A DNA stretch of 34,577 bases from Gemmatimonadota bacterium. Lineage in GTDB: Bacteria; Gemmatimonadota; Gemmatimonadetes; Gemmatimonadales; GWC2-71-9. Positions 9,635 through 24,508 of the stretch are shown here, piece after piece (the stretch's first letter is position 1; the number at the start of each line of letters is the position of its first letter). The stretch spans positions 1 through 34,577 of the forward strand of contig QHVD01000026.1 of assembly GCA_003222235.1 (NCBI GenBank). The letters run 5' to 3'. Made by a program: the position numbers and the translations under genes. Under the pieces are notes generated by a model that saw only the letters and a list, made by a program, of their open reading frames with translations, had not been told where the DNA came from and did no database searches.

Positions 9635-9666
9635 TTGCTGGCAGTGGTCTTCGGGATATATTCGGG
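9635..9666 (+). promoter_or_regulatory. Putative sigma70-type promoter (TTGCTG-16-TATATT) with an embedded 19-nt motif TCTTCGGGATATATTCGGG (candidate SOS/LexA-type operator)
   Basis: The 19-mer at 9648-9666 is identical to 13496-13514, upstream of imuB. It contains nTTC-N7-nTTC and a TTCGGG-N5-TTCGGG direct repeat, and it overlaps the -10 hexamer. Confidence 0.45.
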
Positions 9667-9707
9667 GTTGTTATCAGAATCGACCACCGAGCAGGCAGGA
9701 GCCGCAG

Positions 9708-9866
9708 ATGCAGATCCCCCTTGAGCTACCGCGCCCCCACCCCCACCCCTTCCCCGTGCCTGTCCCGCCGTCCCCCGGCACCGGGTGCCCAGACTGCGGA
9801 GCCGGCTTGGTCCGGCAATCGGGCTGCCTGGTTTGTGTCCAGTGCGGGTGGGCGCGATGCGGGTGA
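9708..9866 (+). CDS. Small (52 aa) zinc-ribbon protein, not in the ORF track because it is under 60 aa
   Basis: AGGAG lies 6 nt before the ATG. Translation: MQIPLELPRPHPHPFPVPVPPSPGTGCPDCGAGLVRQSGCLVCVQCGWARCG*. The paired CxxC motifs resemble, from memory, the C-terminal zinc ribbon of class II ribonucleotide reductases. Confidence 0.45.
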   Translation: MQIPLELPRPHPHPFPVPVPPSPGTGCPDCGAGLVRQSGCLVCVQCGWARCG

Positions 9867-9869
9867 GCC

Positions 9870-11036
9870 ATGGCGGACAGGCGGACTGACCGACCGGCGG
9901 ACGGTGGAGGCGTAGGCGTGCGCGCGCGGCAGGTGCTCGAGCTTCAATTGTTTCCGTCCACCTGTCCGCCAGTCGCTCCGTCCGCCCTGTCTTCGTCCGC
10001 CAGTCCACCGGTGCGTCCGTCCGCCCTCCCGGTGCTCGACCAGCGGCTCCGCGGCACCAAGTTCGTGTCGCTCTCCCCGAAGTCGCTTCTCAACTCACCG
10101 CAGCAGACGGGCGTGGACTTCTGGTCCCTGAACCCGTACGTCGGCTGCGAGTTCGGTTGCACGTATTGCTACGCCCGTTATGCACACCGCTACGTGGTCG
10201 AGCGGGCGCACGACGCTGGGAAGCTCTCGGACGACGAGTTCCGCGAATTCCGCGGACCGCAGGGCTGGGAGGCGTTCGAGCGGCGCATCTTCGTCAAGGA
10301 ACGGACTCTCGGCGCGCTGGAGTCGGACCTGCAGCGTTACTTCCGGTCCGCCGGCCGGTCGCACGCTCAGCCCGCACCGATCGTCATCGGCACCGCGACC
10401 GATCCCTACCAGCCCGCCGAGCGGCATTTCCGGATCACCCGCCGGATCCTGGAGCGCCTGGCGTGCTGCGAAGGCCTCAACCTCGGGATCATCACGAAGA
10501 GCCCGCTCATCGCGCGCGATCTGGACGTGCTGCGGGACATCCAGGCCCGCAACGATCTCGAGGTGTACGTCTCGCTCATCACGGTGGACGCGCCGCTCAT
10601 CCGGAAGGTCGAGGCCCGCTCGCCGATGCCAGCGGTGCGGCTGCGAGCCCTGAAGCGGCTGACGGACGGCCGGATCAACGCCGGGCTCATCGTGGCGCCG
10701 GTCCTTCCGGGGATTACGGACGATTTGCCTCAGCTGGAAGCCCTATTCCGGGCGGCCCGCGAGGCCGGCGCCAGGTTCGTACACGCGGGACCCTTGCGTC
10801 TCTACCCCGCCGTGCGCGACCGCTACCTGCCGGTTCTCGAGAAGCACTTCCCGCATCTCGCCGGGCGCTACCGGCGCGCCTACGCTCGCCAGAGCAGCGC
10901 GCCGCGGGAATACGCGGCGGCGCTGGCGCGTCGCATCAAACAACTCCAGCGGAGGTTCGGGTTTCCGGCGAACGACGGGATGCGGGACCGCTACGCGCGG
11001 CGGCGGCCGCCCACCCAGGGAGCGCTCGAGCTATGA
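9870..11036 (+). CDS. Radical SAM protein, COG1533 / SplB-like (PA0069/Rv2578c-type) family
   Basis: SPKSLLNSPQQTGVDFWSLNPYVGCEFGCTYCYARY carries the CxxxCxxC cluster, followed by TDPYQP and further family blocks. The first ~54 codons are translated repeat sequence, so the true start may be GTG 10032. Confidence 0.85.
   Translation: MADRRTDRPADGGGVGVRARQVLELQLFPSTCPPVAPSALSSSASPPVRPSALPVLDQRLRGTKFVSLSPKSLLNSPQQTGVDFWSLNPYVGCEFGCTYCYARYAHRYVVERAHDAGKLSDDEFREFRGPQGWEAFERRIFVKERTLGALESDLQRYFRSAGRSHAQPAPIVIGTATDPYQPAERHFRITRRILERLACCEGLNLGIITKSPLIARDLDVLRDIQARNDLEVYVSLITVDAPLIRKVEARSPMPAVRLRALKRLTDGRINAGLIVAPVLPGITDDLPQLEALFRAAREAGARFVHAGPLRLYPAVRDRYLPVLEKHFPHLAGRYRRAYARQSSAPREYAAALARRIKQLQRRFGFPANDGMRDRYARRRPPTQGALEL
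9872..10025. repeat. Inverted arrays of an ~8-nt unit (GGCGGAC x3, then GTCCGCC x4)
   Basis: GGCGGAC occurs at 9872, 9880 and 9896. GTCCGCC occurs at 9964, 9980, 9995 and 10019. The arrays could form a long imperfect hairpin. They are stop-free in the frame of the downstream ORF. Confidence 0.55.
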
Positions 11037-11447
11037 CGGCTCAACCTGGCCCAGCTCGGTGACGGCGCGGATTTCCGCCCACAGGATACTCAAGTCGAGC
11101 GGCTGCGAGAGGAAGCGCTCCGAGCGGACCGGGCCGCCGAACGAGTCCGGCAGCGGGCTCGCCCCGCAGAGGATGAACCGGCCGAGGAGCTCCGGGCGCA
11201 ACGTCGTTGCCTCCCGCCACAGCCACAACCCGCCGTCCGACAGCATCACGACGCTACTGACCACGGCGTCAAACCTGCTCAGCAGGATCGCTTTCAGGCC
11301 CTCCAAGCAATCGGCCGCGGTGGCCACGCGGCAGCCGCGGTTGCGGAGGTGACGCGCCAGCGTCTCCCGCAGGTCGGGGTCGTCCGCGACGACCAGAATC
11401 GAAAGGGCAGATCGATTCACGGCGGAGAGCTGCGAACGGAAAACCAT
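11031..11447 (-). CDS. Single-domain response-regulator receiver, probably a pseudo-receiver
   Basis: ILVVADDPDLRETLARHLRNRGCRV matches a REC N-terminus. At the expected phospho-acceptor position, FDAVVSSVVMLSDGG reads Ser-Ser rather than the usual (D/S)D. There is no output domain. Confidence 0.65.
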   Translation of the reverse strand: MVFRSQLSAVNRSALSILVVADDPDLRETLARHLRNRGCRVATAADCLEGLKAILLSRFDAVVSSVVMLSDGGLWLWREATTLRPELLGRFILCGASPLPDSFGGPVRSERFLSQPLDLSILWAEIRAVTELGQVEPS

Positions 11448-11477
11448 GCGTGCACTCCGCCCGGGCGTCGCCGAACG

Positions 11478-11759
11478 CTAGGACACGCGGCTTTTCCCGT
11501 TGTAGTGGGTGATCAGTCGCTCGACCCAGCGCGGGGCTCGACGTCCTCGACCCGCGTAGGCCTCCGCCAAGAGGCGGCAGATCTTCCGGCCGAGGAAGGC
11601 GCCGTCCCGCCCGTCGATGCCGGTGGTCAGCCCTTCGACGAGAGCGACGATAGCGGCCGCCTTGCGTGACCGCGGTCCCCTGCGCATCGTCGCCGACCGG
11701 CGTTTGGGCCGCGTGCGGCTTGCAGGGACCCTCGCAGTGCGCTTCACCCTGCTTCCCAT
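11478..11759 (-). CDS. Truncated paralogue (P3) of the two upstream HTH proteins: C-terminal domain only, with a basic N-terminus
   Basis: AAIVALVEGLTTGIDGRDGAFLGRKICRLLAEAYAGRGRRAPRWVERLITHY aligns with IGQLVRLLDELSGDLSPQQTMRLGREIAGLLAAAYETRRLSPPRWVQQFLQQY of P1. Confidence 0.45.
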   Translation of the reverse strand: MGSRVKRTARVPASRTRPKRRSATMRRGPRSRKAAAIVALVEGLTTGIDGRDGAFLGRKICRLLAEAYAGRGRRAPRWVERLITHYNGKSRVS

Positions 11760-11784
11760 GCAGTTCCCACCGCCTCAAGAGCAT

Positions 11785-11805
11785 AACTGCACAAACCGCA
11801 CACAC
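11785..11805. promoter_or_regulatory. Direct-repeat motif AACTGCAC-AAACCGCAC-ACAC upstream of P3 (candidate operator)
   Basis: On the gene-sense strand it reads GTGTGTGCGGTTTGTGCAGTT, just downstream of a TTGCCG-17-TATATG promoter-like pair. Related motifs lie at 12392-12416 and 12901-12921. Confidence 0.35.
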
Positions 11806-11850
11806 ACATATACCACGACAACGCCGGAGCGGCAAGTCCCGGCGCGCGCA

Positions 11851-12270
11851 CTAGGCGACTTCGCCGGCGGCTTTGCCCCGGCGGGGGCGGTAATGACGCA
11901 GCAGTGCTCGTACCCAGGGCGGTGGGACCAGGCGCCGCGTCTCGTACGACTCGACGAGCAGCGCGGCGATTGCGCGCCCGAGCTGCACTGTCTGCTCGGG
12001 CGAGAAGTCCACGGCCAGCTCATTCAGCAGGCGGACGAACTGGCCCACGTTCGGCGGGCGCGTGGCCGTGCCCTGGGCGGTGAGCCAGCTCTCCAGCCTG
12101 GTGCGGGTTGCGCTGCGGGGCGACGAGCCCCGCAGGAAATCGCGCAGCCCGTTCGGGCTCACACCCGTCTCTCTCGCCAGACGTCGCAGGGAGAACCGCG
12201 CCGCCTCGCGAGCGAGCCCGTCCCGCAGCAGGGGGACCGGCAGCGTCGGGGCGGCTGGGCGTGCCGTCAT
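11851..12270 (-). CDS. Uncharacterised HTH protein, paralogue P2 (139 aa)
   Basis: MTARPAAPTLPVPLLRDGLAREAARFSLRRLARETGVSPNGLRDFLRGSSPRSATRTRLESWL... is alignable over its whole length with P1. The 291-aa track ORF is an N-terminal over-extension. Confidence 0.7.
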   Translation of the reverse strand: MTARPAAPTLPVPLLRDGLAREAARFSLRRLARETGVSPNGLRDFLRGSSPRSATRTRLESWLTAQGTATRPPNVGQFVRLLNELAVDFSPEQTVQLGRAIAALLVESYETRRLVPPPWVRALLRHYRPRRGKAAGEVA

Positions 12271-12391
12271 TGGACCCCTGCGAGGTGTCCGGTGCGCACC
12301 TCCGGGCCATGTCCGATGACGACGCCGTCGCCGGAGCGGCGATCGTCGCTCGGCGTCTCGACCTGCTCCTTGCGCCGTTTGGCACCACCCC

Positions 12392-12416
12392 GAACCGAAC
12401 TGCACGAACTGCACAC
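12392..12416. promoter_or_regulatory. Direct-repeat motif GAACCG-AACTGCAC-GAACTGCAC-AC upstream of P2 (candidate operator)
   Basis: On the gene-sense strand it reads GTGTGCAGTTCGTGCAGTTCGGTTC, downstream of a TTGACG -35-like hexamer. Confidence 0.35.
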
Positions 12417-12463
12417 GCCGTACAAGTACGGCAGCGGTTCCGCCCTCGTCAAGCCCCAATTCG

Positions 12464-12886
12464 TCAGGCGACTTCGCTGGCGGTTTTGCCTCGGCGCGCC
12501 CGGTACTGCTGCAGGAACTGTTGGACCCAGCGGGGCGGGGAGAGCCGGCGCGTCTCGTACGCCGCCGCGAGGAGTCCGGCAATCTCGCGCCCGAGTCGCA
12601 TCGTCTGCTGAGGGGAAAGATCCCCCGAGAGCTCATCGAGCAGGCGGACGAGCTGACCGATGTTCGGGGGGCGCGTGACCCGCTGCTGATTGGAGAGCCA
12701 GCGCTCGAGCTTCGCGCGGGTGGCACTGCGGGGAGCCGATCCGTTGAGGAAGTTCCGCAGGCCGTTCGGGCTCAAGGAGATCTGCGCAGCCGCCTGGCGC
12801 AACGAGAGCCGGGCCGTCTCGCGCGCGACGGCATCACGCAAGAGGGGAACTGGGAGCGTCGGGACGTTACGCCGGCCACCACTCAT
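12464..12886 (-). CDS. Uncharacterised HTH protein, paralogue P1 (140 aa)
   Basis: LPVPLLRDAVARETARLSLRQAAAQISLSPNGLRNFLNGSAPRSATRAKLERWL is an XRE-like helix-turn-helix. The C-terminal domain ends ...PPRWVQQFLQQYRARRGKTASEVA*. Confidence 0.7.
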   Translation of the reverse strand: MSGGRRNVPTLPVPLLRDAVARETARLSLRQAAAQISLSPNGLRNFLNGSAPRSATRAKLERWLSNQQRVTRPPNIGQLVRLLDELSGDLSPQQTMRLGREIAGLLAAAYETRRLSPPRWVQQFLQQYRARRGKTASEVA

Positions 12887-12900
12887 TCGGCGGCCCCCGG

Positions 12901-12921
12901 GTGTGCAAGTTGTGCGGTTTG
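12901..12921. promoter_or_regulatory. GTGTGCAAGTT-GTGCGGTTT-G motif upstream of P1, in inverted orientation relative to the P2/P3 copies
   Basis: The plus-strand sequence here resembles the minus-strand reading of the 11785 and 12392 motifs. A TTGCAC-17-TAAGGT promoter-like pair lies on the gene-sense strand just upstream. Confidence 0.3.
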
Positions 12922-13010
12922 CCCGGAGCTACACACCACAACCTTAGCATAACCCGGAGGACCGTGCAACCGGGAACGCCGCCCGTGGGCTCCTCCCCCG
13001 GGGCTCCGCG

Positions 13011-13436
13011 TCACCCCTCGCCCGTCATTGCCGCCGCGAGCGCGCGGATCGGCGTCGGGCGAGGATCAACGCCTCGATACGTCCACGGCAGATCGATCTG
13101 CTCCCTGAACGTCGGCATTTCGGTCCACGAGTTGAACACGTGCGCCACCTCGTGCCGCGCCGGCACCGCGCCTGTGCGCGTCGGTCAAAGAGCTCCGGGT
13201 TGCGCTGTTCGACCGCGTACGGAAATCCCGCGGGAGCCACCGGAAGAAACGGTCGAGCATACGCCGCAAGCACGTCCTCTGAGGGCGGCTCGTAAAACGC
13301 GCTGTCGATCCCCACCCAGGTCGACGCTGAACTCGACGGTGTGCGGGATCCATTTGCCGAGCTCAACCAGGTTCGCTGGAGGAGGCGGCAGCGCGGTGAC
13401 ATCGTCGAAGAAGCGGGGATGGTCCCGGCTGGCCAT
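13011..13436 (-). pseudogene. Decayed gene read in three frames (weak DUF72/UPF0759-like resemblance)
   Basis: Three frames each hold a protein-like piece. One reads MASRDHPRFFDDVTALPPPPANLVELGKWIPHTVEFS. One reads WVGIDSAFYEPPSEDVLAAYARPFLPVAPAGFPYAVEQRNPELFD. One reads VPARHEVAHVFNSWTEMPTFREQIDLPWTYRGVDPRPTPIRALAAAMTGEG*. No single frame is open across the span. Confidence 0.4.
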
Positions 13437-13480
13437 AGAAGTTGAAGTATAGCAACATGTTATCTCTCTAGAAACCGGCC

Positions 13481-13514
13481 TTGCGGCCCTTACAATCTTC
13501 GGGATATATTCGGG
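13481..13514 (+). promoter_or_regulatory. Putative promoter of the imuB-dnaE2 cassette (TTGCGG-18-TATATT) with the same embedded 19-nt motif (candidate SOS/LexA-type operator)
   Basis: TCTTCGGGATATATTCGGG at 13496-13514 is identical to 9648-9666 and overlaps the -10. It lies 20 nt upstream of the imuB ATG. imuB/dnaE2 cassettes are classically LexA-regulated. Confidence 0.5.
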
Positions 13515-13533
13515 TCCCTCTTGGGTGCTCTAG

Positions 13534-14832
13534 ATGGCGCGAAATCACCTGACGAGCTCCTCCGCCGTCTGCTGCTGGATACCGCTATTCGCGCTGCGCT
13601 GCGAAGCGGCGCGGCGACCCGAGCTCGGGTCCCGGCCCAGCGCGCTCGTCGCACCCGACGATACCCGCAGGGTGTGGCAGGTCTCGCCGCTCGCCCGGCA
13701 TGCGGGCGTGAAGCCCGGGATGACCGTCAGCCAGGCGATCGGTCTATGCCACACGCTCCTGCTGTGCGAAGCCGACCCGGTCTATTACGACGAGCAGTTC
13801 GCTCGACTGCTCTCCGCCCTGGGAGCGGTGAGTCCCGTCATCGAGGCGCCCGAGCTGGGCAGGGTGTTCGTGGGGACGGACGGGTTGGAAGGGTTGTATG
13901 GGGGGCCGGAACGGATCGCGGATGCGATCAAGTGCGGAGTGCGGAGTGCGGAGTGCGGAATTTCAATGCAAGCTCGTTCGCCACGACACTCACCTGAAAA
14001 CTCCGCATTCCGCACTCCGCATTCCGCACTCCGGGTGGGGTGGGGCATGGGCAAGTTCGTCTCCTGGGTGGCCGCGACCCGCGCCAAGCCAGGTGGCGCG
14101 GTCATCGTTCGCCCCGGGGAGGAGGGGAAGTTCCTCGCGGCGCAGCCGCTGGCCGTGTTGCCGCTCGATCCGGACACGCACCGCCGGCTGCGGCTGCTCG
14201 GGCTCCGCACGATTGGGGACCTCGCGGCGCTTCCGGAGGAAGCGGTGGTCTCGCAGCTCGGTCGCGCCGGGCGCCGCCTGTGGCGGCTCGCGGCGGGCGA
14301 GACCGCGGAGCGGGTCGTCGGCCGCGAGGCGCCTGAGCCGATCACCGCCGCCATCGCCTATTTCTCTCCGGTTGCCGAGCGGGAACTGCTCGCGCACGCG
14401 CTGGAGCAGCTGATCGAGCGCGCGCTCAGGCACCCGCGCCGCGCCGGCTGGCGGGTACAGGTGCTGCGTGCGCGCGCCGAGCTCGAGCACGGCGCGTCGT
14501 GGCTCGCCGAGGCGACGCTCAAGGACCCGTCGGCGGACCGGGATCGCATCGCCGCGCCGCTCAAGACGCGCCTCGAGCAGGCGCCCCCCACCGGGGCCGT
14601 GGAGCGGCTCGCCGTCGAGTTCACCGGGTTCGCGCCGGGCACCACCGAGCTGCAGCTCTTCGCGCGCGACGCGCGCGCCGCCGCCCGGGCCGGCCGACGC
14701 CGCGCGCTCCGCACCGCCGTCCACGAGATCAAGCTCCGGCTCAAGCGCCCGATGCTGTACCACGTCATCGCCGTCCAGCCATGGTCGCGCATCCCCGAAC
14801 GCCGCTACGCGCTGATCGACTATGAACCCTAG
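13534..14832 (+). CDS. imuB: ImuB, Y-family-polymerase-like component of the ImuB/DnaE2 mutasome; catalytic-fold part only, truncated by a repeat-borne TAG
   Basis: The N-terminus reads AVCCWIPLFALRCEAARRPEL...VSPLARHAGVKPGMTVSQA...DPVYYDEQF...SPVIEAPELGRVFVGTDGLEGLYGG. The gene sits directly upstream of dnaE2. It contains an in-frame ~35-codon repeat insert (CGVRSAECGISMQ...[12 protein letters not shown]). Confidence 0.85.
   Translation: MARNHLTSSSAVCCWIPLFALRCEAARRPELGSRPSALVAPDDTRRVWQVSPLARHAGVKPGMTVSQAIGLCHTLLLCEADPVYYDEQFARLLSALGAVSPVIEAPELGRVFVGTDGLEGLYGGPERIADAIKCGVRSAECGISMQARSPRHSPENSAFRTPHSALRVGWGMGKFVSWVAATRAKPGGAVIVRPGEEGKFLAAQPLAVLPLDPDTHRRLRLLGLRTIGDLAALPEEAVVSQLGRAGRRLWRLAAGETAERVVGREAPEPITAAIAYFSPVAERELLAHALEQLIERALRHPRRAGWRVQVLRARAELEHGASWLAEATLKDPSADRDRIAAPLKTRLEQAPPTGAVERLAVEFTGFAPGTTELQLFARDARAAARAGRRRALRTAVHEIKLRLKRPMLYHVIAVQPWSRIPERRYALIDYEP
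13931..14033. repeat. Hairpin-type heptamer element inside imuB: (AGTGCGG)x4 - 41-nt spacer - inverted 31-mer
   Basis: The left arm is 13931-13958 (+aat). The right arm, 14000-14030 (actccgcattccgcactccgcattccgcact), is identical to 21683-21713. The arms pair with G:T (G:U) wobbles. The element is read through in frame. Confidence 0.9.
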
Positions 14833-14861
14833 TGCGGAATGCGGAGTGCGGAATGCGGAAT
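14831..14861. repeat. 31-nt heptamer element AGTGCGGAATGCGGAGTGCGGAATGCGGAAT (left copy of a perfect inverted pair)
   Basis: The reverse complement of 15164-15194 is identical, 31 of 31. The preceding T plus the element's first AG form the imuB stop TAG (14830-14832). Confidence 0.95.
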
Positions 14862-15125
14862 AGGCCTGACAGGCTTCGGGCGCTAAATGTGCCGCAACGG
14901 GTGGAGGTGGAGCTGGACGAACGCGGGGTGCCGGCGTTCGTGAAACCGAAGACGGGAAACGGGAAACGGATCGAGTCCATCGGCGAGACCTGGCGCATCG
15001 ACGACGAGTGGTGGCGACGACCGATCTCGCGTCGCCATGTCGAGGCGATCCTGGAGAGGGGTAAGCGGGTGGTGCTGTTCGAGGATCTGATGACGGCCGA
15101 GTGGTGGATGCAGATGCCGACATAA
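14832..15125 (+). CDS. Stand-alone ImuB C-terminal domain (split from imuB)
   Basis: LNVPQRVEVELDERGVPAFVKP...IGETWRIDDEWWRRPISRRHVEAILERGKRVVLFEDLMTAEWWMQ matches my recollection of the ImuB C-terminal block (ERIxxEWW...RDY...LFRD...WFLHG). GTG 14832 overlaps the imuB TAG as TAGTG. Alternative starts are ATG 14853 and GTG 14889. Confidence 0.6.
   Translation: MRNAECGMRNRPDRLRALNVPQRVEVELDERGVPAFVKPKTGNGKRIESIGETWRIDDEWWRRPISRRHVEAILERGKRVVLFEDLMTAEWWMQMPT
14952..14970. repeat. AACGGGA-family heptamer array (about 2.5 units) inside the ImuB C-terminal ORF
   Basis: gacgggaaacgggaaacgga encodes KTGNGKR. The same family occurs at 17674-17708. Confidence 0.7.
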
Positions 15126-15126
15126 C

Positions 15127-15194
15127 GCGGCATTCGGAATGCGGCAGCGAAGCCCGACCTTCGATTCCGCATTCCGCACTCCGCATTCCGCACT
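15127..15194. repeat. Hairpin-type heptamer element between the ImuB-C ORF stop and the dnaE2 ATG (degenerate left arm, palindromic spacer, perfect 31-mer right arm)
   Basis: The element reads gcggcattcggaatgcggcag - cgaagcccgaccttcg - attccgcattccgcactccgcattccgcact. It ends one base before ATG 15195. Confidence 0.9.
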
Positions 15195-18100
15195 ATGTAT
15201 ATCGAACTTCACTGCCACTCCGCCTTCTCGTTCCTCGACGGCGCCTCACTCCCCGAGCAGCTCGCGCTCACGGCCGCGCAGCTCGGCTACCCGGCGTTGG
15301 CGCTCACCGATCACAACGGCCTGTACGGCTCGATGGCGTTCGCACAGGAGGCGAAGCACCTCGGCCTGCAGGCGATCACCGGCTCGGAAGTGACGCTGCT
15401 CGACGGCTCGCACGTGACGCTGCTCGCCGAAACGCCCGAGGGGTACGCGAACCTGTGCCGGCTGATCACCGAAGCACATCTGGGCCGTGTCGACCGCCGC
15501 GACCCGCGACTCGACTTCGCTTCGCTCGAGCGGCGGCACGAGGGGCTCGTCGTACTCTCCGGCTGCCGCGCCGGACTGCTCGCAACCGTGCTCGAGAAGG
15601 AAGGCCGCGCCGCCGCCCGGAGGCTGCTTGAGCGCTGCCGTGCCGAGTTCGGGAAGGAGAGCTTCTTCGTCGAGCTCCAGCGCAACCTGGTCCGCGGCGA
15701 TCGCGACCTTACGCGCGCACTCTGCGATCTCGCGGATCGCGTACAACTTGGCGTCGTAGCGACGGGGAACGTGCACTATCACACGCGCGAGCGGCATCGG
15801 CTGCACGACGTGCTCGTCGCGATCCGGCACCGCGCGACGCTCGACGGCTCGCACGACGTGCGGCGACCGAACAGCGAGTTCTCCCTGCGGCCGCCCCAGG
15901 AGGTCGCGGCGCTCTTCTCCGATCGGCCCGACGCGGTCGCGAACACCGGCGTGATCGCCGAGCGCTGCGGGACGTTCGACCTGACGCGCGACCTCGGCTA
16001 CGTCTTTCCCGACTTCCGTGGCGCAGGCCGGACGTCCGCCCCGCAGGCCCTGGCCGAGCTGTGCCGCACGAGGCTAGAGGAGCGCTATCCCCCGGGTTCC
16101 GCCCACCGGGACGAGGCCGAGCGGCGCCTCGAGCAAGAGCTGGCGCTCATCGAGCGCCATCGACTCAGCGGGTTCTTCCTGGTCTATCACGACCTCTTCG
16201 ACCTGGCCCGCGAAGTGGCGGCGGATGTGCGCCGGGGTACCCGGCGGGCCCACGGGAACCTGCTCCCCGGCCGCGGCCGCGGCTCGTCGGTGTCGTCCAT
16301 CGTATGCTACCTGCTCGGCCTGTCGCACATCGACCCGGTCGCGAACCGGCTGTTCATCGGGCGATTTCTCAACGAGACCCTCGCGTCGGTGCCCGACATC
16401 GATCTCGACTTCCCGCGCGAGATCCGCGAGGAGCTGATCCGCCGGGTCTACAGGCGCTACGGCGACGAGCACGTCGGGCTCGTCTGCTCGTTCCCCACCT
16501 ACCGGCTCCGCTCGGCGGTGCGAGAGATCGGCAAGGCGCTGGATCTGCCGCTGGGAGAGATCGAGCAGACGGCGAAACTGGCGGACCGGCGGTCGGGCGG
16601 GGGCGGACTGGCGGACGAGTTGGACCAGCTCCCGGGCTTCGAGGGACGGCGCACGGCCCCGCTCTGGAAAGAGCTTTGCGAGCTGGCCGAGGAGATCACG
16701 GGGCTGCCCCGCCACGTGTCGCAGCACGTCGGCGGGATGATCATCTCGAGCCGGCCTCTCGTCGAGCTCGTGCCGCTCGAGCGCGCGGCGATGGAGGACC
16801 GCGTCGTGTGCCAGTGGGACAAGGACTCCTGCGACGACGCGCGCTTCATCAAGATCGATTTTCTCGCGCTCGGCATGTTGTCGCTGGTGGAGGAGTGCGT
16901 CGAGCTGGTCGCCGCGGGCACGGGGACGCCGCCCGACCTCTCCCGCATTGATTTCGATGACCCCGCGGTCTACGACCGCATCTGCCGCGGCGACACCGTG
17001 GGGCTGTTCCAGATCGAGAGCCGCGCGCAGATCCAGATGATCCGCCGCACCCGGCCGAAGAACCTCGAAGACTTGGCCGTCGAGGTGGCGATCGTGCGGC
17101 CGGGGCCGATCGTGGGCGGCGCCGTGAACCCGTACGTGCGCCGCCGTGAGGCGCAGCGCCGCGCCGAAGCCGAGGGGCGCCGCTACGAGCCGCCGGTGGA
17201 CCACCCGCTCCTGAAGCCCGTGCTGGCGGAGACGCTGGGCGTGATTCTCTATCAGGACCAGGTGTTGCAGGTGTGCCAGGCGCTGGCCGGGTTCACGACC
17301 GGGCAGGCCGAGGCGCTGCGCCGCGCGATGAGCCGCCGGCGCAGCCGCGAGCTGATGGCGGGGTTCTGGGAGGAGTTCAAGGACGGGGCGGCGGCGCGCG
17401 GGGTCCCCGAGTCCGTCGCGCAGCGCGTGTTCACGCAGGTGATCGCGTTCTCCGAGTTCGGATTCCCCAAGTCCCATGCGGCGGCGTTTGGGCTGCTCGC
17501 CTACCAGTCGGCGTGGCTCCGGCACTATCACCCAGTCGAGTATTACTGCGCGCTCTTCAACAACCAGCCGATGGGGTTCTACTCGCTCGACGTGCTCGGG
17601 CGGGACGCGCAGCGCAACGGCATCGAGATCCGGCTCCCGGACGTGAACCGGAGCGACGTGTGGTGCACCATAGAACGGGAAACGGGAAACGGGAAACGGG
17701 AAACGGGGGCGGTGCGGGTGGGGCTCGGGTTCGTCCGTGACTGGAGCGAGGAGACGGCGACCGCCGTCGTGACCGAGCGCGAGCGCAACGGCCCGTTCCG
17801 GAGCGTCGGCGAGCTCGTGCGCCGCGCGCCTCCCAAGCTCAAGCGCAGCGCGATCGAGAACGTCGTGTGGGTGGGCGGGTGCGACGGCTTCGGTCTCACA
17901 CGGCGCGAGCTGTTGTGGCAGATAGGGCTGTGGCTCCCGCCCCGGGAGGAGCGCGGCGGTGACGCACGCGGCCGGCGCCAGCTCGAGCTCGCGCTCAACC
18001 ACCCGCACGAGCACTTGCGCTTCGGCGGCCTGGAGCCGGGCGAGCGGATGCTCGCCGAATACGCGGTGTTGGGGTTCGCGGTGAGCGGCCACCCGCTCGA

Positions 18101-18527
18101 GCTGCTACGCCAGGCGCTGCCGCGCGGGATGGCGAAGAGCGACGCGCTCCCGCGGCTCGAACACGGGACATGGGTCGAGGTGGCGGGCCTCGTGGTCGCG
18201 CGCCAGCGTCCCGAAACGGCGAAGGGGTTCATCTTCGTGCTGCTGGAGGACGAGGCGGGGATGGTGAACGTCATCGTACGGCCGGACGTATTCCAGCAGC
18301 ACCGCGCCGCGATCCGCGGCGAGCCGTTCCTGTGGGTGCGGGGGAAGCTCGCGAAGGACGACGGGACGGTGAACGTGGTGGCGGAGGAGGTGCGGGGACT
18401 CAGACTGAATGCGGAATGCGGAGTGCGGAATGCGGAATCGACGGGCGAGCCCACCATTCCCCATTCACCGTACGCCTTCCTGAAGACGATGCGCCGGGTG
18501 GCGCCGGAATCGAAGGATTGGGGCTAG
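15195..18527 (+). CDS. dnaE2: Error-prone DNA polymerase III alpha-like subunit DnaE2 (ImuC)
   Basis: The PHP domain reads YIELHCHSAFSFLDGASLPEQL...LALTDHNGLYG. Pol III alpha core blocks include GRGSSVSSIVCYLLGLSHIDP, DIDLDF, FQIESRAQ and RPGPIVGG. The protein is 1110 aa and lies downstream of imuB. Confidence 0.95.
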   Translation: MYIELHCHSAFSFLDGASLPEQLALTAAQLGYPALALTDHNGLYGSMAFAQEAKHLGLQAITGSEVTLLDGSHVTLLAETPEGYANLCRLITEAHLGRVDRRDPRLDFASLERRHEGLVVLSGCRAGLLATVLEKEGRAAARRLLERCRAEFGKESFFVELQRNLVRGDRDLTRALCDLADRVQLGVVATGNVHYHTRERHRLHDVLVAIRHRATLDGSHDVRRPNSEFSLRPPQEVAALFSDRPDAVANTGVIAERCGTFDLTRDLGYVFPDFRGAGRTSAPQALAELCRTRLEERYPPGSAHRDEAERRLEQELALIERHRLSGFFLVYHDLFDLAREVAADVRRGTRRAHGNLLPGRGRGSSVSSIVCYLLGLSHIDPVANRLFIGRFLNETLASVPDIDLDFPREIREELIRRVYRRYGDEHVGLVCSFPTYRLRSAVREIGKALDLPLGEIEQTAKLADRRSGGGGLADELDQLPGFEGRRTAPLWKELCELAEEITGLPRHVSQHVGGMIISSRPLVELVPLERAAMEDRVVCQWDKDSCDDARFIKIDFLALGMLSLVEECVELVAAGTGTPPDLSRIDFDDPAVYDRICRGDTVGLFQIESRAQIQMIRRTRPKNLEDLAVEVAIVRPGPIVGGAVNPYVRRREAQRRAEAEGRRYEPPVDHPLLKPVLAETLGVILYQDQVLQVCQALAGFTTGQAEALRRAMSRRRSRELMAGFWEEFKDGAAARGVPESVAQRVFTQVIAFSEFGFPKSHAAAFGLLAYQSAWLRHYHPVEYYCALFNNQPMGFYSLDVLGRDAQRNGIEIRLPDVNRSDVWCTIERETGNGKRETGAVRVGLGFVRDWSEETATAVVTERERNGPFRSVGELVRRAPPKLKRSAIENVVWVGGCDGFGLTRRELLWQIGLWLPPREERGGDARGRRQLELALNHPHEHLRFGGLEPGERMLAEYAVLGFAVSGHPLELLRQALPRGMAKSDALPRLEHGTWVEVAGLVVARQRPETAKGFIFVLLEDEAGMVNVIVRPDVFQQHRAAIRGEPFLWVRGKLAKDDGTVNVVAEEVRGLRLNAECGVRNAESTGEPTIPHSPYAFLKTMRRVAPESKDWG
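17674..17708. repeat. Tandem heptamer array (AACGGGA)x5 inside dnaE2, read in frame
   Basis: gaacgggaaacgggaaacgggaaacgggaaacgggg encodes ERETGNGKRETG. Confidence 0.9.
18408..18470. repeat. 31-mer heptamer element (30/31 to 14831-14861) plus a degenerate inverted arm, in frame near the dnaE2 3' end
   Basis: aatgcggaatgcggagtgcggaatgcggaat (18408-18438) is followed by cgacgggcgagcccacc and then attccccattcaccg. It encodes [21 protein letters not shown]. Confidence 0.85.
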
Positions 18528-19119: not shown

Positions 19120-20034
19120 TCACGGTTGGGGGCTTGCTGGCACGGCGATCGCCCCCGTCGGCCATTCACCGTCGAGGAAGCGCCGCATTGCCGCCAGGAC
19201 CGGCTCGGGTTGCTCAACGTAGAGCGCATGTCCCGCGCCGGGGAACATCATCAACCGCGCATTGGGCATTCGCTCGGCCCACACCCGCGCCCCTTCCGGC
19301 GGCGCGATGAGATCCCGATCGCCGTGCATCACGAGGGCCTCGGCCGTGATCGAGCCGGCCTGGTCCCGGAAGTCCCACTCGCCCAGCGACCGATCCACGT
19401 GACCATACCACGCAAATAGCTGCTCCGGTCGCTCGTTCGGCAGATCGCAGAAGTCCACCGGGAAACGATCGGCGAGCGCCGGGTCACCCACGTACACCGG
19501 TGCGTTCGCCCTCCAAAACCGGCGGCAAAAGCCCTCCGGGTCGCGCTTGCTCGCACCCGACTGGAGCAGGCGGGCGACCTCCTGCGCGGCCGGCGTCCTG
19601 ACTCGGAGCGCCTTCTCGGGGGGGTTGTAGGAGCGGCCGAGAGCCGCGGAAGGCGCCATAGCGCCGAGCGCAACCAGTCGACTGACACGGTCTGGGTGCT
19701 CCGCCGCGTACACCGCCGCGATCGCGCCGACGTAGGAAAAGCCCACGAGCGCCATGCGCTCGAGTCCGAAGTGGCGTCGCACCGCCTCGACGTCGGTGAG
19801 GTCGTGCGTGATGCCGATCCGCGCGGGGTCGCGCACCGCGTCCGAGCGGCCGCGACCGCGCAGATCGTAGAAAATCAGGCGCTGGCCGTCGGCGAGCGGC
19901 CCGAGCGGGCCCGCGAGGTAGACGGCAAGGGGAACGACGACCGCCTGGGAACCGCTGCCGCAGAGCTGGTAATGGAGGCGCAGGCCCTCTTCGGCCGGTA
20001 GCCAGCCCTCCGAGCGGGCGGCCCCACGCATCAT
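19120..20034 (-). CDS. Alpha/beta-fold hydrolase (proline-iminopeptidase-like)
   Basis: The oxyanion region reads [10 protein letters not shown]. The nucleophile elbow reads [34 protein letters not shown] and GAGH lie near the C-terminus. The ATG overlaps the lhr stop as ATGA. Confidence 0.8.
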
Positions 20035-23000
20035 TCGCGCAGTGAGGCCGGCCGGGGGCGGGGGCGGGGGCGGGTCTTTCCGAGATAGGTCCGCACCAGG
20101 GGCGCCACCCGGCGCTGGACCAACGCGGTCCTGATCTGTTGCTCTGCTTCTGGGCTAGCCTCGACCAGTAACTGCACGCCGCGCCCTTCGCCTTCCTGGA
20201 TCGCGATCGGGATGCCGTCGCGATAGAGCACGTGGTTCGTCGCGACCGCGGGCAGCGGGTTCCCGGCCGTGAGAATGCCGACGAGATTGAGCGGATCCGC
20301 CCCGCTCACCGCGACGAGCTCGCCGCTCGGGTCCTGGCGTCGCACGGAGCGGAGCAGTCCCACCGCCTCTGCAAGCGCGTACTGCTCGCCCGAGAACCCC
20401 GCGACGAAGCGGCCGCCGCGGATCTCGCCGCGCGCCTCGAGCCGGCGGTAGGCCCGCAGGACGTCCCGCCACGGCGGCAGCGGGGATTCACGCGTCACGA
20501 GCCGCCGGAAGACTACGCCGTAGCGTCGGAGCAGCTGCCGGGCGACGGCTTCCGCGACCTGGTCTTCCGGCAAGAGCGTCGACCGCGGCACGCGCGACCA
20601 CCGGCCGGCGGTCTCGACCCCGAACGGCGCGACCTTGCCGTGGCGGCGGAACCCGCCGATCGGCCGGCGCCGGTCGGATGGGACCAGCAGCGCCCGCAGC
20701 CCCGCGAAGCTGTCCGAGGTGACGAGCCCCCAGGCCACGAGCTCGCCGAGGCCCTTCTCGACCTCGGTCCGCAACAGTCCCGTCGCGCTCACGAGATCGC
20801 CGAAGAACGATGCGCCGCGCCGATCGAGCGCGTCGAGTAGCGCCCGCGCCGCGTGCGACAGAGGCAGCTCCCCGGACTCGGGGCTCACCGCGAGCGATCG
20901 CCACACGTCTCCTCGCTCCCGTCGAAACAGCGCGACGGGCGTCGAGCGGACGGGTCCAGCCTTGCGACCCCCCCCACCCCCCCCGCCCCCCCCACCGTTC
21001 AGGATGGTGCGCGGCGCCACTGCGGCGAGCCTCCCCCAGGCGATCTCCCCCGACAGGCAGAGCCCGTCGAGCCACAGGGGATCGTACTCCCGCAACCGCG
21101 CCGGCAGCACGTCCGTCTCCCACGCGCCAGCGGCAACCTCGCACCCGTCGAGCAGGTCGAGCACCGCCGCGAGCCCCTCGGGTCCCTCGGCGCGGGATTC
21201 GTCTGCAACCCGCTGCCACTGGAAGAGGAAGCGGGTGAAGTCGGCGGCGGTGACCGGCTCGATCTCCTTGCGCAGCCGGTCCAGGGTGTAGCGATGAATG
21301 CGGGCGAGGAGGCGGCGCTCGCACCACTCCAGCTCGCTCGTGCCGGGGGTGAACCGGCCGCGCAGCACGAACCCTTCGTGCTCGAGCGCGCCGAGGGCGA
21401 AGTCCACGTCGGCTACCGGCACGCCGAGCGCCGTCGCGACCGCCGCCGCCGTCGTCGGCCCGACAACCTCGAGCCGGCCCCGCACGAGCTCCCGCAGGGC
21501 GTCCTCGCGCGTCCAGCTCCTCGCCCGCTCGCGCTCGGGCGGCGTGAGCGCCGGCTCGCAGCGCGCGCCCGGGAACACCGCCGCGAGCATCGGCAGGCGC
21601 TCGGCCGCAAGCCACAGTCCTGCGCCCGCCTGAAGCACGCCGGCCCGCCCGGCCTGGACGAGCTGCCCGAAATACCCCTGCCACTCCGCATTCCGCACTC
21701 CGCATTCCGCACTCGGGAGGGCACCGGTGACCAGCAACGCATCGTGCAGCTCGTCCGCGGAGCTGACGTCGGGCCAAGCTTCGTCCTTCACCCGGTCGAT
21801 CGCCGCCTGGTCGAGCTTGCCGAGCTCGTCCGCCGTCTTCACGTCGAGCCCGCGGCGGGTGATCACGGCCTGGGTGCGGCGCTCCTCCAGCGGGGCGTCG
21901 TCCAGGAACGCGTACGGCTTCGCGTTCAGCGCCTCGTGCGACAGGGGCGACGGCTCCGCCGTGTCGCGCGCGACGAGCGCGAAGCGCCCCGCCTCCATCT
22001 CCTCGAGCACGCGCTTGAGTCCCGGGAAGTCCATCGCCTCGAGCAGGCAGTCCTCGATCGTCTGCTTCACGAGCGGATGGTCGGGGATCTCCCGGTCGCC
22101 CACCAGGTTCTCGGGGCAGGCGAGCTGATCGGGAAAGATCGCCGCGACCAGGTCTTCGGCCTCCATCCGCTGCAGCGGGGTGGGCACCTTCTTCCCACCG
22201 CGCTGGCGCAGCACGGCAAGTGCCCGGGTGGCGTTCCAGCGCCAGCGTGACTGGAACATCGGCGCGTCGAGCATCGCCTGGACGAGCAGCCCCTCGACCG
22301 TCGCGGGCTTCAAGTACTGGAATACGTCCTCGAGCGGGAAGCTGTGCTGAGGCCCGAGCGAGAGGACGATCGCATCCTCGGTCGCCGCGGCCTGCAGCTC
22401 GAAATTGAAGCTGCGGCAGAAGCGCTTCCGCAGGGCGAGCCCCCAGGCCCGGTTGACCCGGCTCCCGAACGGCGCGTGCAGCACGAGCTGCATCCCGCCT
22501 GCCTCGTCGAAGAACCGCTCGACCACGATCGTCTGCTGCGTCGGGATCACGCCGAGGATCTGCTTCGAGGCAGCGAGATACTCGACCATCTGGCGCGCGG
22601 CGGGCTCCGGGAGCCCCGGGATCTCGCGACCCACCCACGCCACGGCCGACTGGGGATCCGCGAGCCGATCGGAGATGTCCTGGCGCAGCCGCGACACGGC
22701 CTCCGACAGCTCCGCCGTGCGCGCCGGCGCCTCGCCGACCCAGAACGGGATGGACGGCGGCTGCCCCTGCGCGTCCACGACCCGCACCTGGCCCGACTCG
22801 ATCTTGCGAATGAGATAGGAGGTGTTGCCGAGCTGGAAGACGTCGCCCGGCATGCTCTCGATCGCGAAGTCCTCGTTGAGCGTGCCGACGAACGTGTCGG
22901 TGGGCTCGAGCACCACCCGGTAGTCGCCGATGTCGGGGATGGCCCCTCCCGACGTTATCGCCGCGAGTCGGGCGCCGCGACGGGCCCGCAGCCGGCCGTT

Positions 23001-24425
23001 CACCCCGTCATAGTGAACGTAGGCGCCGCGCCGGCCGCGCCGCGTGGTGAAGCCCTCGGCGAGCATCTGCACGACGTCGTCGAAGTCCTTGCGCGAGAGG
23101 TCGCGGTAGGGATAGGCGCCGCGCACGAGCTCGTACAGCGCCCCTTCGTCCCACTCTTCGCATGCCACCGCCGCCACGAGCTGCTGAGCCAGGATGTCGA
23201 GCGGGCGCCCCGGGATGATCAGCCGGTCGAGCCGGCGCTCGCGCGCGGCGCGGACCAGCGCCGCGCACTCGATCAGCTCGTCACGCGACAGCGGAAAGAT
23301 CCGCCCCTTGGGTACCGCTCCGAGGTGATGTCCCGACCGGCCCACCCGCTGCAGCAGCGTGGCGATCGAGCGCGTCGAGCCGATCTGGCAGACCAGGTCC
23401 ACCGCGCCGATGTCGATCCCGAGCTCGAGCGACGCCGTGGCGACGAGCGCCTTGAGCTTTCCCTCCTTGAGCCGCTGCTCCGCCTCGAGGCGCTTATCAC
23501 GAGACAGGCTGCCGTGATGCGACGTGACGTGCTCGGCGCCGACGCGCTCGGAAAGGTGCATCGTCATGCGCTCGGCGAGCCGGCGGGTGTTCACGAACAC
23601 GAGTGTGGTGCGGTGTTCGCCGATGAGCTGGGCCAATCGGTCGTACAGCTCCTCCCACACTTCCGCCGCCATCACCGCCTCGAGCGGCGAAGAGGGGATC
23701 TCGATCGCGAGGTCGAGCTGCCGGGCGTGGCCCGAGTCGATAATGCAGGTGTCGGGTGTCGGGTGTCGGATGCCCGCCAGGAAAGCGGCGATCTCCTCGA
23801 TCGGCTTCTGGGTCGCGGACAGACCGATGCGCTGGAGCGAGCGGCCCGCCAGATGCTCCAGCCGCTCGAGAGAGAGCGCGAGGTGGCTGCCGCGCTTGTC
23901 CCGCGCCACGGCGTGGATCTCGTCCACGATCACCGTGCGCACCGTGCGGAGCATCGCACGCGCGTTTTGGGACGTGAGGATGAGATACAGCGACTCGGGA
24001 GTCGTGACGAGGATGTGCGGCGGACGCTTCGCCATCGCCTGGCGGTCGGGCTGCGGCGTATCGCCCGTGCGAACGAGCGTGCGGATCTCCACGTCAGGCA
24101 GGCACAACTGCTCCAGCGTGCCGCGGATCTCGGCGAGCGGCTCGGCGAGGTTCTTCTGAACGTCGTTCGAGAGCGCCTTGAGGGGAGAGACGTACACCAC
24201 CTGGGTCTCGTCCCCCAAGGTGCCGTCCAGCCCCTGACGAAGCAGGGAATCGATCGCGGCGAGGAACGCCGCGAACGTCTTCCCCGAGCCCGTGGGGGCC
24301 GCGATCAGCGCGTGCCGGCCGGCCTGAATGATCGGCCAGGCGCCACGCTGCGGCTCGGTCGGATCGCGGAACCGCGACTCGAACCAGCGCGCGACGACGG
24401 GATGGAAGCCGGAGAGCGTCATCAC
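20031..24425 (-). CDS. lhr: Large ATP-dependent helicase Lhr (SF2 DEAH, Lhr core plus long C-terminal region)
   Basis: Motifs [35 protein letters not shown] and LELGIDIG...RVGRSGH. The protein is 1464 aa. It carries the in-frame inserts [11 protein letters not shown] and G10, and an RPRPRPRP tail. Confidence 0.9.
20053..20074. repeat. (CGGGGG)x3+ hexamer array encoding the RPRPRPRP tail of Lhr
   Basis: The sequence reads ccgggggcgggggcgggggcggg. Confidence 0.85.
20968..20996. repeat. (C8-N)x3 nonamer array encoding a Gly10 run in Lhr
   Basis: The sequence reads ccccccccaccccccccgccccccccacc. The homopolymer runs of 8 are also error-prone in sequencing. Confidence 0.85.
21683..21713. repeat. 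31-mer heptamer element (inverted orientation) in frame inside lhr
   Basis: actccgcattccgcactccgcattccgcact is identical to 14000-14030 and matches the reverse complement of 14831-14861 at 30 of 31 positions. Confidence 0.9.
23748..23769. repeat. (GGTGTCG)x3 heptamer array in frame inside lhr
   Basis: ggtgtcgggtgtcgggtgtcgg encodes HPTPDT on the minus strand. Confidence 0.85.
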
Positions 24426-24508
24426 ACCATTCTATGGCGAAAATTTACCGAAGGGGAGGGGCATGAACGCGGCGAACAGCCAGCAAACAGCATTAAACAG
24501 TATAATAG

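Follow-up and report, generated by a model that had tools for sequence, protein, structure and literature searches.

A direct repeat of TTCGG half-sites as predicted LexA operator at an ImuA-less mutasome cassette of Gemmatimonadota

Known LexA boxes and the repeat upstream of imuB

The LexA box of alphaproteobacteria is GTTC-N7-GTTC (as cited in PMC8565304). Control promoters included in the present analysis carried the boxes expected of them, namely GAAC-N7-GAAC at Cereibacter lexA and Azospirillum imuA, GTTC-N7-GTTC-N7-GTTC at Sphingomonas lexA, and CGAAC-N4-GTTTC at Bacillus lexA. The GTTC-N7-GTTC box has been reported for Acidobacterium capsulatum too, and the box of Gram-positive bacteria (Cheo or DinR box) is the palindrome CGAAC-N4-GTTCG. 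In the literature covered, which did not include subscription journals, no published description of a LexA motif was found for Gemmatimonadetes, Gemmatimonadota or Gemmatimonas. With respect to the genes under study, mutasome architectures that lack ImuA have already been published, both as the Kyrpidia tusciae-type operon (PMC6511836) and as the DnaE2X module, in which ImuB is split (PMC12926913), and RecA was proposed in place of ImuA in both variants (PMC6511836, PMC12926913).

The stretch of DNA analyzed here (34,577 nucleotides, hereafter the window) is one contig (C280) of a soil Gemmatimonadales metagenome-assembled genome (MAG) of 603 contigs and 3.84 Mb, 86% complete; all labels found among the relatives of the window's ImuB and LexA were Gemmatimonadetes, Gemmatimonadales or Gemmatimonadota. 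Direct reading of the imuB promoter (Table 1) gave TCTTCGGGATATATTCGGG at positions 13496-13514, with TTCGGG half-sites at 13498-13503 and 13509-13514 and TATATT in the spacer, which is the direct repeat that an earlier note on this DNA had described. The hexamers TTGCGG (13481-13486) and TATATT are separated by 18 nt, the imuB ATG lies at 13534, and the intergenic region before imuB had 51% GC, compared with approximately 69% for the genome. The overlap of the box with the -10 hexamer was retained in related imuB promoters, and the gene content of the window places neither imuA nor lexA between promoter and imuB, in agreement with the same note. Taken with the evidence given below, this 17-base repeat is predicted to be an operator of the Gemmatimonadota LexA, a reading to which we assign a probability of about 0.88.

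Table 1. Positions of predicted genes, promoter elements and candidate operators in the window.
Feature	Position	Strand	Description
Candidate LexA operator, radical-SAM operon	9650..9666	+	Second operator; 19-mer 9648-9666 identical to the imuB one
Zinc-ribbon ORF	9708..9866	+	52 aa; first gene of the radical-SAM operon; homologue in locus L024
Radical-SAM protein	9870..11036	+	Rv2578c / PA0069 (COG1533) kind; family-model match below cut-offs
-35 hexamer, imuB promoter	13481..13486	+	TTGCGG; CTTGC(C/G) at fixed distance in ~25 related promoters
Candidate LexA operator, imuB	13498..13514	+	TTCGGG-ATATA-TTCGGG direct repeat; conserved block reaches 13496-13518
-10 hexamer, imuB promoter	13505..13510	+	TATATT, inside operator spacer; same spacer in relatives' recA and radical-SAM boxes
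imuB-like gene	13534..14832	+	432 aa; catalytically dead Y-family polymerase; IMS domain (Pfam)
Standalone ImuB C-terminal domain gene	14832..15125	+	97 aa (GTG start at 14832) or 90 aa (ATG start at 14853)
dnaE2	15195..18527	+	1110 aa; error-prone DNA polymerase; NCBIfam 963.9 bits vs cut-off 939
lhr	20031..24425	-	1464 aa; large helicase-related protein
Weaker LexA-type box, lhr	24437..24452	-	TTCGGTAAATTTTCGC; 17.0 bits; before -10-like ATAGAAT and lhr start

A promoter scan proposed another pair of hexamers (TAGAAA/TACAAT at 13469-13496), which was not conserved in relatives and would set the box over the transcription start instead of the -10. The conserved -35 and -10 hexamers flank the box or sit within it in the imuB and lexA promoters of relatives, and under either pair the predicted geometry at imuB is of the repressor type. 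With the conserved TTGC(N)/TATATT pair, the -10 fell within the operator at imuB, at the radical-SAM (rSAM) operon and at recA, while lexA differed in having one box that fills the -35/-10 spacer and the other 3' of the -10.

The resemblance to the alphaproteobacterial box that had been suggested in the earlier note held for the architecture (direct repeat, 11-bp period, TTC core), and extended to the placement in SOS promoters, including those of lexA, recA and the imuB-dnaE2 cassette, but it did not hold for the half-site or for the protein. The Gemmatimonadota half-site is TTCGG(G), in which the G of GTTC is not conserved: among 116 sites the base before TTC was A in 18, C in 43, G in 34 and T in 21, with TTCGG conserved. 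In alignments with the Cereibacter and Sphingomonas proteins, the alphaproteobacterial recognition helix was SKSGIHRLI, compared with SLATVHEHL here, and a hinge insert of approximately 25 residues was absent from the Gemmatimonadota LexA. With the Gram-positive type there are likenesses of another kind, since the GTTCG half-site overlaps TTCGG and 10 of 16 recognition-helix residues are common with Bacillus LexA, including TVH-HL (TVHGHL in Bacillus); the Gemmatimonadota half-sites, however, stand head to tail at an 11-bp period and not as a palindrome, and Gly at residue 44 is replaced by Glu or Lys. An origin from the alphaproteobacterial LexA was ruled out by the comparison of helix and hinge. 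As helix, hinge and half-site all differ, the Gemmatimonadota system appears to represent a separate solution and not a branch of the alphaproteobacterial LexA lineage, and its site is predicted to be a variant LexA box, not an alphaproteobacterial-type one.

The lexA and recA promoters and the LexA protein

A single S24/LexA gene was found in the genome (contig C499; TIGR00498, 204.7 bits), whereas a second LexA-like gene, with 32-35% identity, was observed in some relatives (G010, G013, G016, G034, G037, G043, G077, G116, G117, G125, G130 and G133). The upstream region of the single lexA reads CTTGCG-TTCGGGCGATTTTCGGG-TAGATT-agc-TTCGGTTTATCTTCGGG-agccaag-GTG, with box 1 between the -35 TTGCGT and the -10 TAGATT and box 2 between the -10 and the start codon. 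Two boxes were present in 79/79 related lexA promoters, both of them exact in 78. Throughout this set the TTCGG pentamers were invariant and the 11-bp period within each box was fixed, while spacers varied and the distance from box to box ranged from 25 to 31; no other conserved motif was visible in these promoters. When a 20-base signature of the lexA promoter was searched in 185,579 species (one genome each), at least 120 stretches were retrieved. Approximately 70 of the 80 stretches listed bore Gemmatimonadota names (Gemmatimonad- or Longimicrobi-), the other listed ones comprising bacteria without a name and three bins under the labels Gammaproteobacteria, Akkermansiaceae and Nitrosopumilaceae.

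Upstream of recA (contig C118) stood the box TTCGGCTTATATTCGGG, at a distance of about 45 nt from the ATG. Full boxes were detected in 21/30 recA leaders from three families of the order when 150 nt were examined, and in 5 further leaders the box lay at the edge of those 150 nt. Inspection of both promoters thus showed at lexA and recA the same motif as at imuB, and not the different box that the earlier note had considered.

The LexA protein has an encoded HTH domain, an Ala87-Gly88 cleavage site and a Ser122/Lys160 dyad, these four residues being invariant. Across the phylum, the sequence of the recognition helix and that of the box changed together. The helix was SLATVHEHL in 80/80 Gemmatimonadales LexAs and contained ATVHEH in 7 LexAs sampled at class level, in both cases with TTCGG boxes, and the lexA promoters of other orders of the class carried two TTCGG-N6-TTCGG boxes. 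All 11 LexAs from other classes had AT(V/A)HKH instead, with TTCGC boxes wherever a box was found; lexA promoters of these classes showed TTCGC-N6-TTCGC between TTGACT and TATAAT. The residue concerned (position 44; Lys in the other classes vs. Glu) aligned without gaps with Glu45 of Escherichia coli LexA, which belongs to the helix III residues listed as contacting DNA (PMC3091678), and the pairing of a Glu-to-Lys change with a G:C-to-C:G change would be chemically sensible. Given that it reflects a single phylogenetic split, this co-variation is supportive and does not amount to statistical proof.

TTCGC boxes with AT-rich spacers were also found before umuD-like peptidase and dinB-like polymerase genes of the Lys-type genomes, yet no motif was detected within 220 nt upstream of recA in these other classes, where co-variation at the level of the regulon fails. 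At the recA loci concerned (L241-L246), recA follows a B3/4-domain-like gene, and a homologue of the latter in G080 (L280, contig C6) carries a TTCGC box, so recA there might be reached by read-through. At one umuD-like gene (L279, 85-122; G065:C119) the arrangement was TTCGC-N6-TTCGC-N6-TTCGT, with an 11-bp period, after the -10, and a similar triple GTTC occurs in the Sphingomonas lexA promoter; arrays of head-to-tail half-sites may be bound by LexA.

A more specific proposal, which we advance tentatively and at slightly less than even odds, is that half-sites in head-to-tail order are read in Gemmatimonadota by a LexA with a Firmicutes-like helix and a short hinge, an arrangement that would have arisen independently of that in alphaproteobacteria, and that residue 44 reads the fifth base of the half-site (Glu with TTCGG, Lys with TTCGC). 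If true, this would amount to a specificity switch found in nature and provide a compact model of the way in which a symmetric LexA dimer engages an asymmetric site.

The repeat could instead be the operator of another DNA-damage regulator, LexA binding elsewhere; other bacteria are known to have regulators that work alongside LexA or take its place, among them DdrO, PafBC and DdiA. Such a regulator would agree with the absence of the motif at recA of the other classes and with the second, divergent LexA-like gene (~35% identity) of some relatives. It is nevertheless unlikely, because the genome of the window encodes one canonical, cleavable LexA, the double sites at lexA fit autoregulation, the half-site changes along with a DNA-contacting residue of LexA, and the lexA promoters offer no alternative conserved motif. 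Control by LexA is therefore the reading that we retain.

Occurrence of the repeat across the genome and at the radical-SAM operon

Exact copies of TTCGGG-N5-TTCGGG were limited to 5 in the 3.84-Mb genome, located at imuB, at the rSAM operon (9648-9666), at lexA, on contig C130 and at one GC-rich, probably coding site, and recA was preceded by a one-mismatch copy. The shorter TTCGG-N6-TTCGG occurred exactly in 16 copies, against approximately 7.6 expected by our estimate from base composition, and within the window itself the motif, when one mismatch was tolerated, was not above chance (4 matches vs. 3.25 expected). Given these counts, the signal resides in the placement at SOS promoters and in the conservation among relatives, not in the number of copies. 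When a scoring matrix (PWM) built from the related lexA sites was used to scan the whole genome, the sites ranked in the order lexA box 2, lexA box 1, imuB (26.8 bits), C130, recA, C83 and rSAM, with lhr lower. At lhr, a box was found at the corresponding position in 7/21 of the upstream regions examined, that of the window included. Some good matches adjoined genes without a link to repair, namely those on C130, C83 and C349; the C130 box (15157-15173, TTCGGGTTGTATTCGGG, 25.7 bits) is followed after about 150 nt by a gene for a predicted outer-membrane beta-barrel protein, with no evident link of this kind.

It might also be argued that the repeat is an element recognized by RNA polymerase or an alternative sigma factor and not a repressor site, as it always lies in or beside the core hexamers and its spacer is often TATATT. 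This is improbable, even more so than a different regulator, because the position of the repeat varies from promoter to promoter (between -35 and -10 in lexA box 1, after the -10 in lexA box 2 and the umuD-like gene, and over the -10 at imuB and recA), its 11-bp period is unlike the -35/-10 spacing, it is accompanied by separate, conserved hexamers of the sigma-70-like type, and in the PWM scan it was confined to a set of damage-response genes. Finally, a chance match or functionless dispersed repeat, the latter also raised in the earlier note, is hardly credible: although the one-mismatch count in the window equals chance and short heptamer repeats abound in the genome, exact copies are few (16 genome-wide) with the best of them at SOS promoters (lexA, recA, imuB, rSAM), and the box is conserved amid diverged flanks in dozens of genomes.

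The rSAM operon has a promoter of its own (-35 TTGCTG, 16 nt, TATATT). Its first ORF matched the tail found at the C-terminus of B12-dependent ribonucleotide reductase, and the rSAM gene matched the models of the PA0069 and Rv2578c families below their cut-offs (190 and 181 bits). PA0069 carries a LexA box and belongs to the LexA regulon of Pseudomonas aeruginosa, and the rSAM operon of the window likewise has a LexA-type box; the difference is that in many Gemmatimonadales the rSAM gene is the first large gene of a unit with imuB, imuB-C and dnaE2. An inverted second box (CCGAACAAACGCCGAA) was observed about 10 nt after the rSAM-operon box in L024 (1735-1750) and approximately 20 related loci, where it falls within the codons for MTEQTPK with which the zinc-ribbon gene begins; the copy in the window is degenerate (~9680-9697).

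An rSAM gene was found upstream of imuB, adjoining or distant, in 38/52 related loci, and the other 14 were cut short upstream or did not extend to the rSAM gene. Where the rSAM gene abuts imuB (17 loci) there was no box before imuB and a single one before the zinc-ribbon/rSAM pair, while loci with intervening genes, the window included, had a box at both the rSAM and the imuB units; altogether, a box preceded imuB or the rSAM-imuB operon in 46/46 loci reaching far enough upstream. In approximately 25 genomes the block CTTCGGGATATATTCGGGTCC and CTTGC stood at a fixed distance before imuB, with flanks that diverge freely. The distribution of boxes across the 46 loci suggests that one ancestral operator served an rSAM-imuB-imuBC-dnaE2 unit. 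In the lineage of the window, this ancestral unit would have been split by inserted genes, leaving the promoter-operator block present twice.

The genes inserted between the two units comprise a response-regulator-like gene, HTH paralogues and a DUF72 gene. On the minus strand, positions 11031-12886 hold two to three paralogous HTH genes of 140 aa and a receiver-domain gene, with the same paralogues in many relatives, and positions 12901-13436, divergent from imuB, hold a DUF72 homologue that is split among three frames. In the relative L005 this gene is intact (Pfam DUF72, E 2.4e-26; ~314 aa) and occurs in duplicate; the split copy represents a pseudogene or else a fault of the assembly.

An ImuA-less cassette and its predicted control

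In the imuB product, Trp15, Gly109 and Arg110 occupy the places at which E. coli Pol IV has its catalytic carboxylates Asp8, Asp103 and Glu104. The sequence also showed a clamp-type QLF motif and a stretch resembling the RecA N-terminus (RRRALRTAVHEIK), the latter by eye, with ImuB 392-418 (AGRRRALRTAVHEIKLRLKRPMLYHVI) compared with RecA 12-38 (DERRKALNLAITQIEKTCGKGAIMRMG). The end of the protein at 432 aa was constant in 52 relatives, none with a fused ImuB-C domain. An ORF for this domain instead fills the 362-bp gap between imuB and dnaE2 and was present in 52/52 relatives, with identities of 38-76%. Among relatives its frame with respect to imuB can be each of the three, which indicates a separate gene and not a frameshift product; a frameshift or truncation of imuB at 14832 was excluded, since the 432-aa end is found in all relatives and the small ORF, in all three frames, has a start of its own.

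The profile of the ImuB-C family, compared with four canonical fused ImuB C-termini, gave an hhalign probability of 80% (E 1.4e-5), the aligned part being the last 50 residues of canonical ImuB (ERIE-GWW...RDYY...W-Y...RWF-HG); the single-sequence match covered residues 470-520 of 524. This link to fused ImuB was made through plasmid-borne canonical ImuBs. In a large representative search the ImuB-C protein yielded 1194 matches at E <=0.001, and the best 150 of these were short standalone proteins only (66-197 aa), among which no link to fused ImuB appeared. The profile found no match in the PDB and no Pfam family above threshold, and distant members gave weak DUF6504 matches. Lack of a close PDB relative has been described for ImuB-C (PMC12926913).

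The earlier note had taken the third mutasome component to be missing or encoded elsewhere. As far as imuA is concerned, the genome searches bore this out, while a third gene had been overlooked, the standalone ImuB-C gene. No imuA was found in the cassette of the 52 relatives. In the genome of the window (86% complete), NF033429 retrieved only RecA (33 bits) and a DnaB-like protein (18 bits), with a Caulobacter control below cut-off, and a profile of three ImuA sequences had no match. Further searches, by tblastn with Azospirillum ImuA and by running the three-sequence profile over 41 genomes of the family, gave no match in the genome of the window. They pointed to 34 places, most of them in frames of 360-390 aa; the seven that were cross-checked were recA. 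At the short ORFs of G149:C50:60952-61389 (229 aa) and G159:C13:36960-37370 (270 aa) the proteobacterial ImuA profile scored 35 and 27 bits, better than RecA, and a few members of the family, these two among them, may hold a canonical ImuA.

Unlike the canonical ImuA-ImuB-DnaE2 cassette, that of the window is devoid of imuA or imuA' and has ImuB-C unfused. From its gene content it fits the known ImuA-less type, as it combines a Y-family polymerase that is inactive, a free-standing ImuB-C and DnaE2 with no imuA detected in the genome; the RecA-N-terminus-like stretch of the polymerase tail, seen by eye only, may be a further likeness to the Kyrpidia-type and DnaE2X systems. It differs from them in that Gemmatimonadota are named in neither PMC6511836 nor PMC12926913, and in that the cassette is joined to, or placed after, a zinc-ribbon/rSAM operon, a link that neither paper mentions. 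Runs of GCGGAAT/GCGGAGT heptamers were observed at 14833-14860 and 15128-15194, flanking the ImuB-C gene as inverted copies, and the same heptamers are read through inside imuB (~13931-14033). In relatives, the recA leaders are filled with heptamer arrays of other kinds.

From the placement and conservation of the motif and the features of the LexA protein, we infer that LexA would bind a direct repeat in which TTCGG recurs every 11 bp (TTCGG-N6-TTCGG, the half-site often being TTCGGG). Because the AT-rich spacer forms the -10 hexamer at imuB, bound LexA would block RNA polymerase there. Upon DNA damage, activated RecA would trigger self-cleavage of LexA at Ala87-Gly88, and a three-gene operon encoding the dead Y-family polymerase, the ImuB-C protein and DnaE2 would be released from repression, with RecA possibly standing in for ImuA. 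The same operator would govern lexA (through two sites), recA, the zinc-ribbon/rSAM operon and probably lhr.

LexA motifs differ among bacterial groups, and the motif is the key to reading the damage response of a phylum from sequence. Gemmatimonadota are an abundant soil phylum known mainly from MAGs, for which the repeat predicts a small regulon in this genome, composed of lexA, recA, the split-ImuB/DnaE2 cassette, the rSAM operon and lhr, and places the ImuA-less mutasome found here under predicted SOS control. The combination of a direct repeat, a Bacillus-like helix and matching Glu/Lys and G/C changes offers a testable case of co-evolution between repressor and operator, with a bearing on the way in which direct repeats are recognized by LexA dimers.
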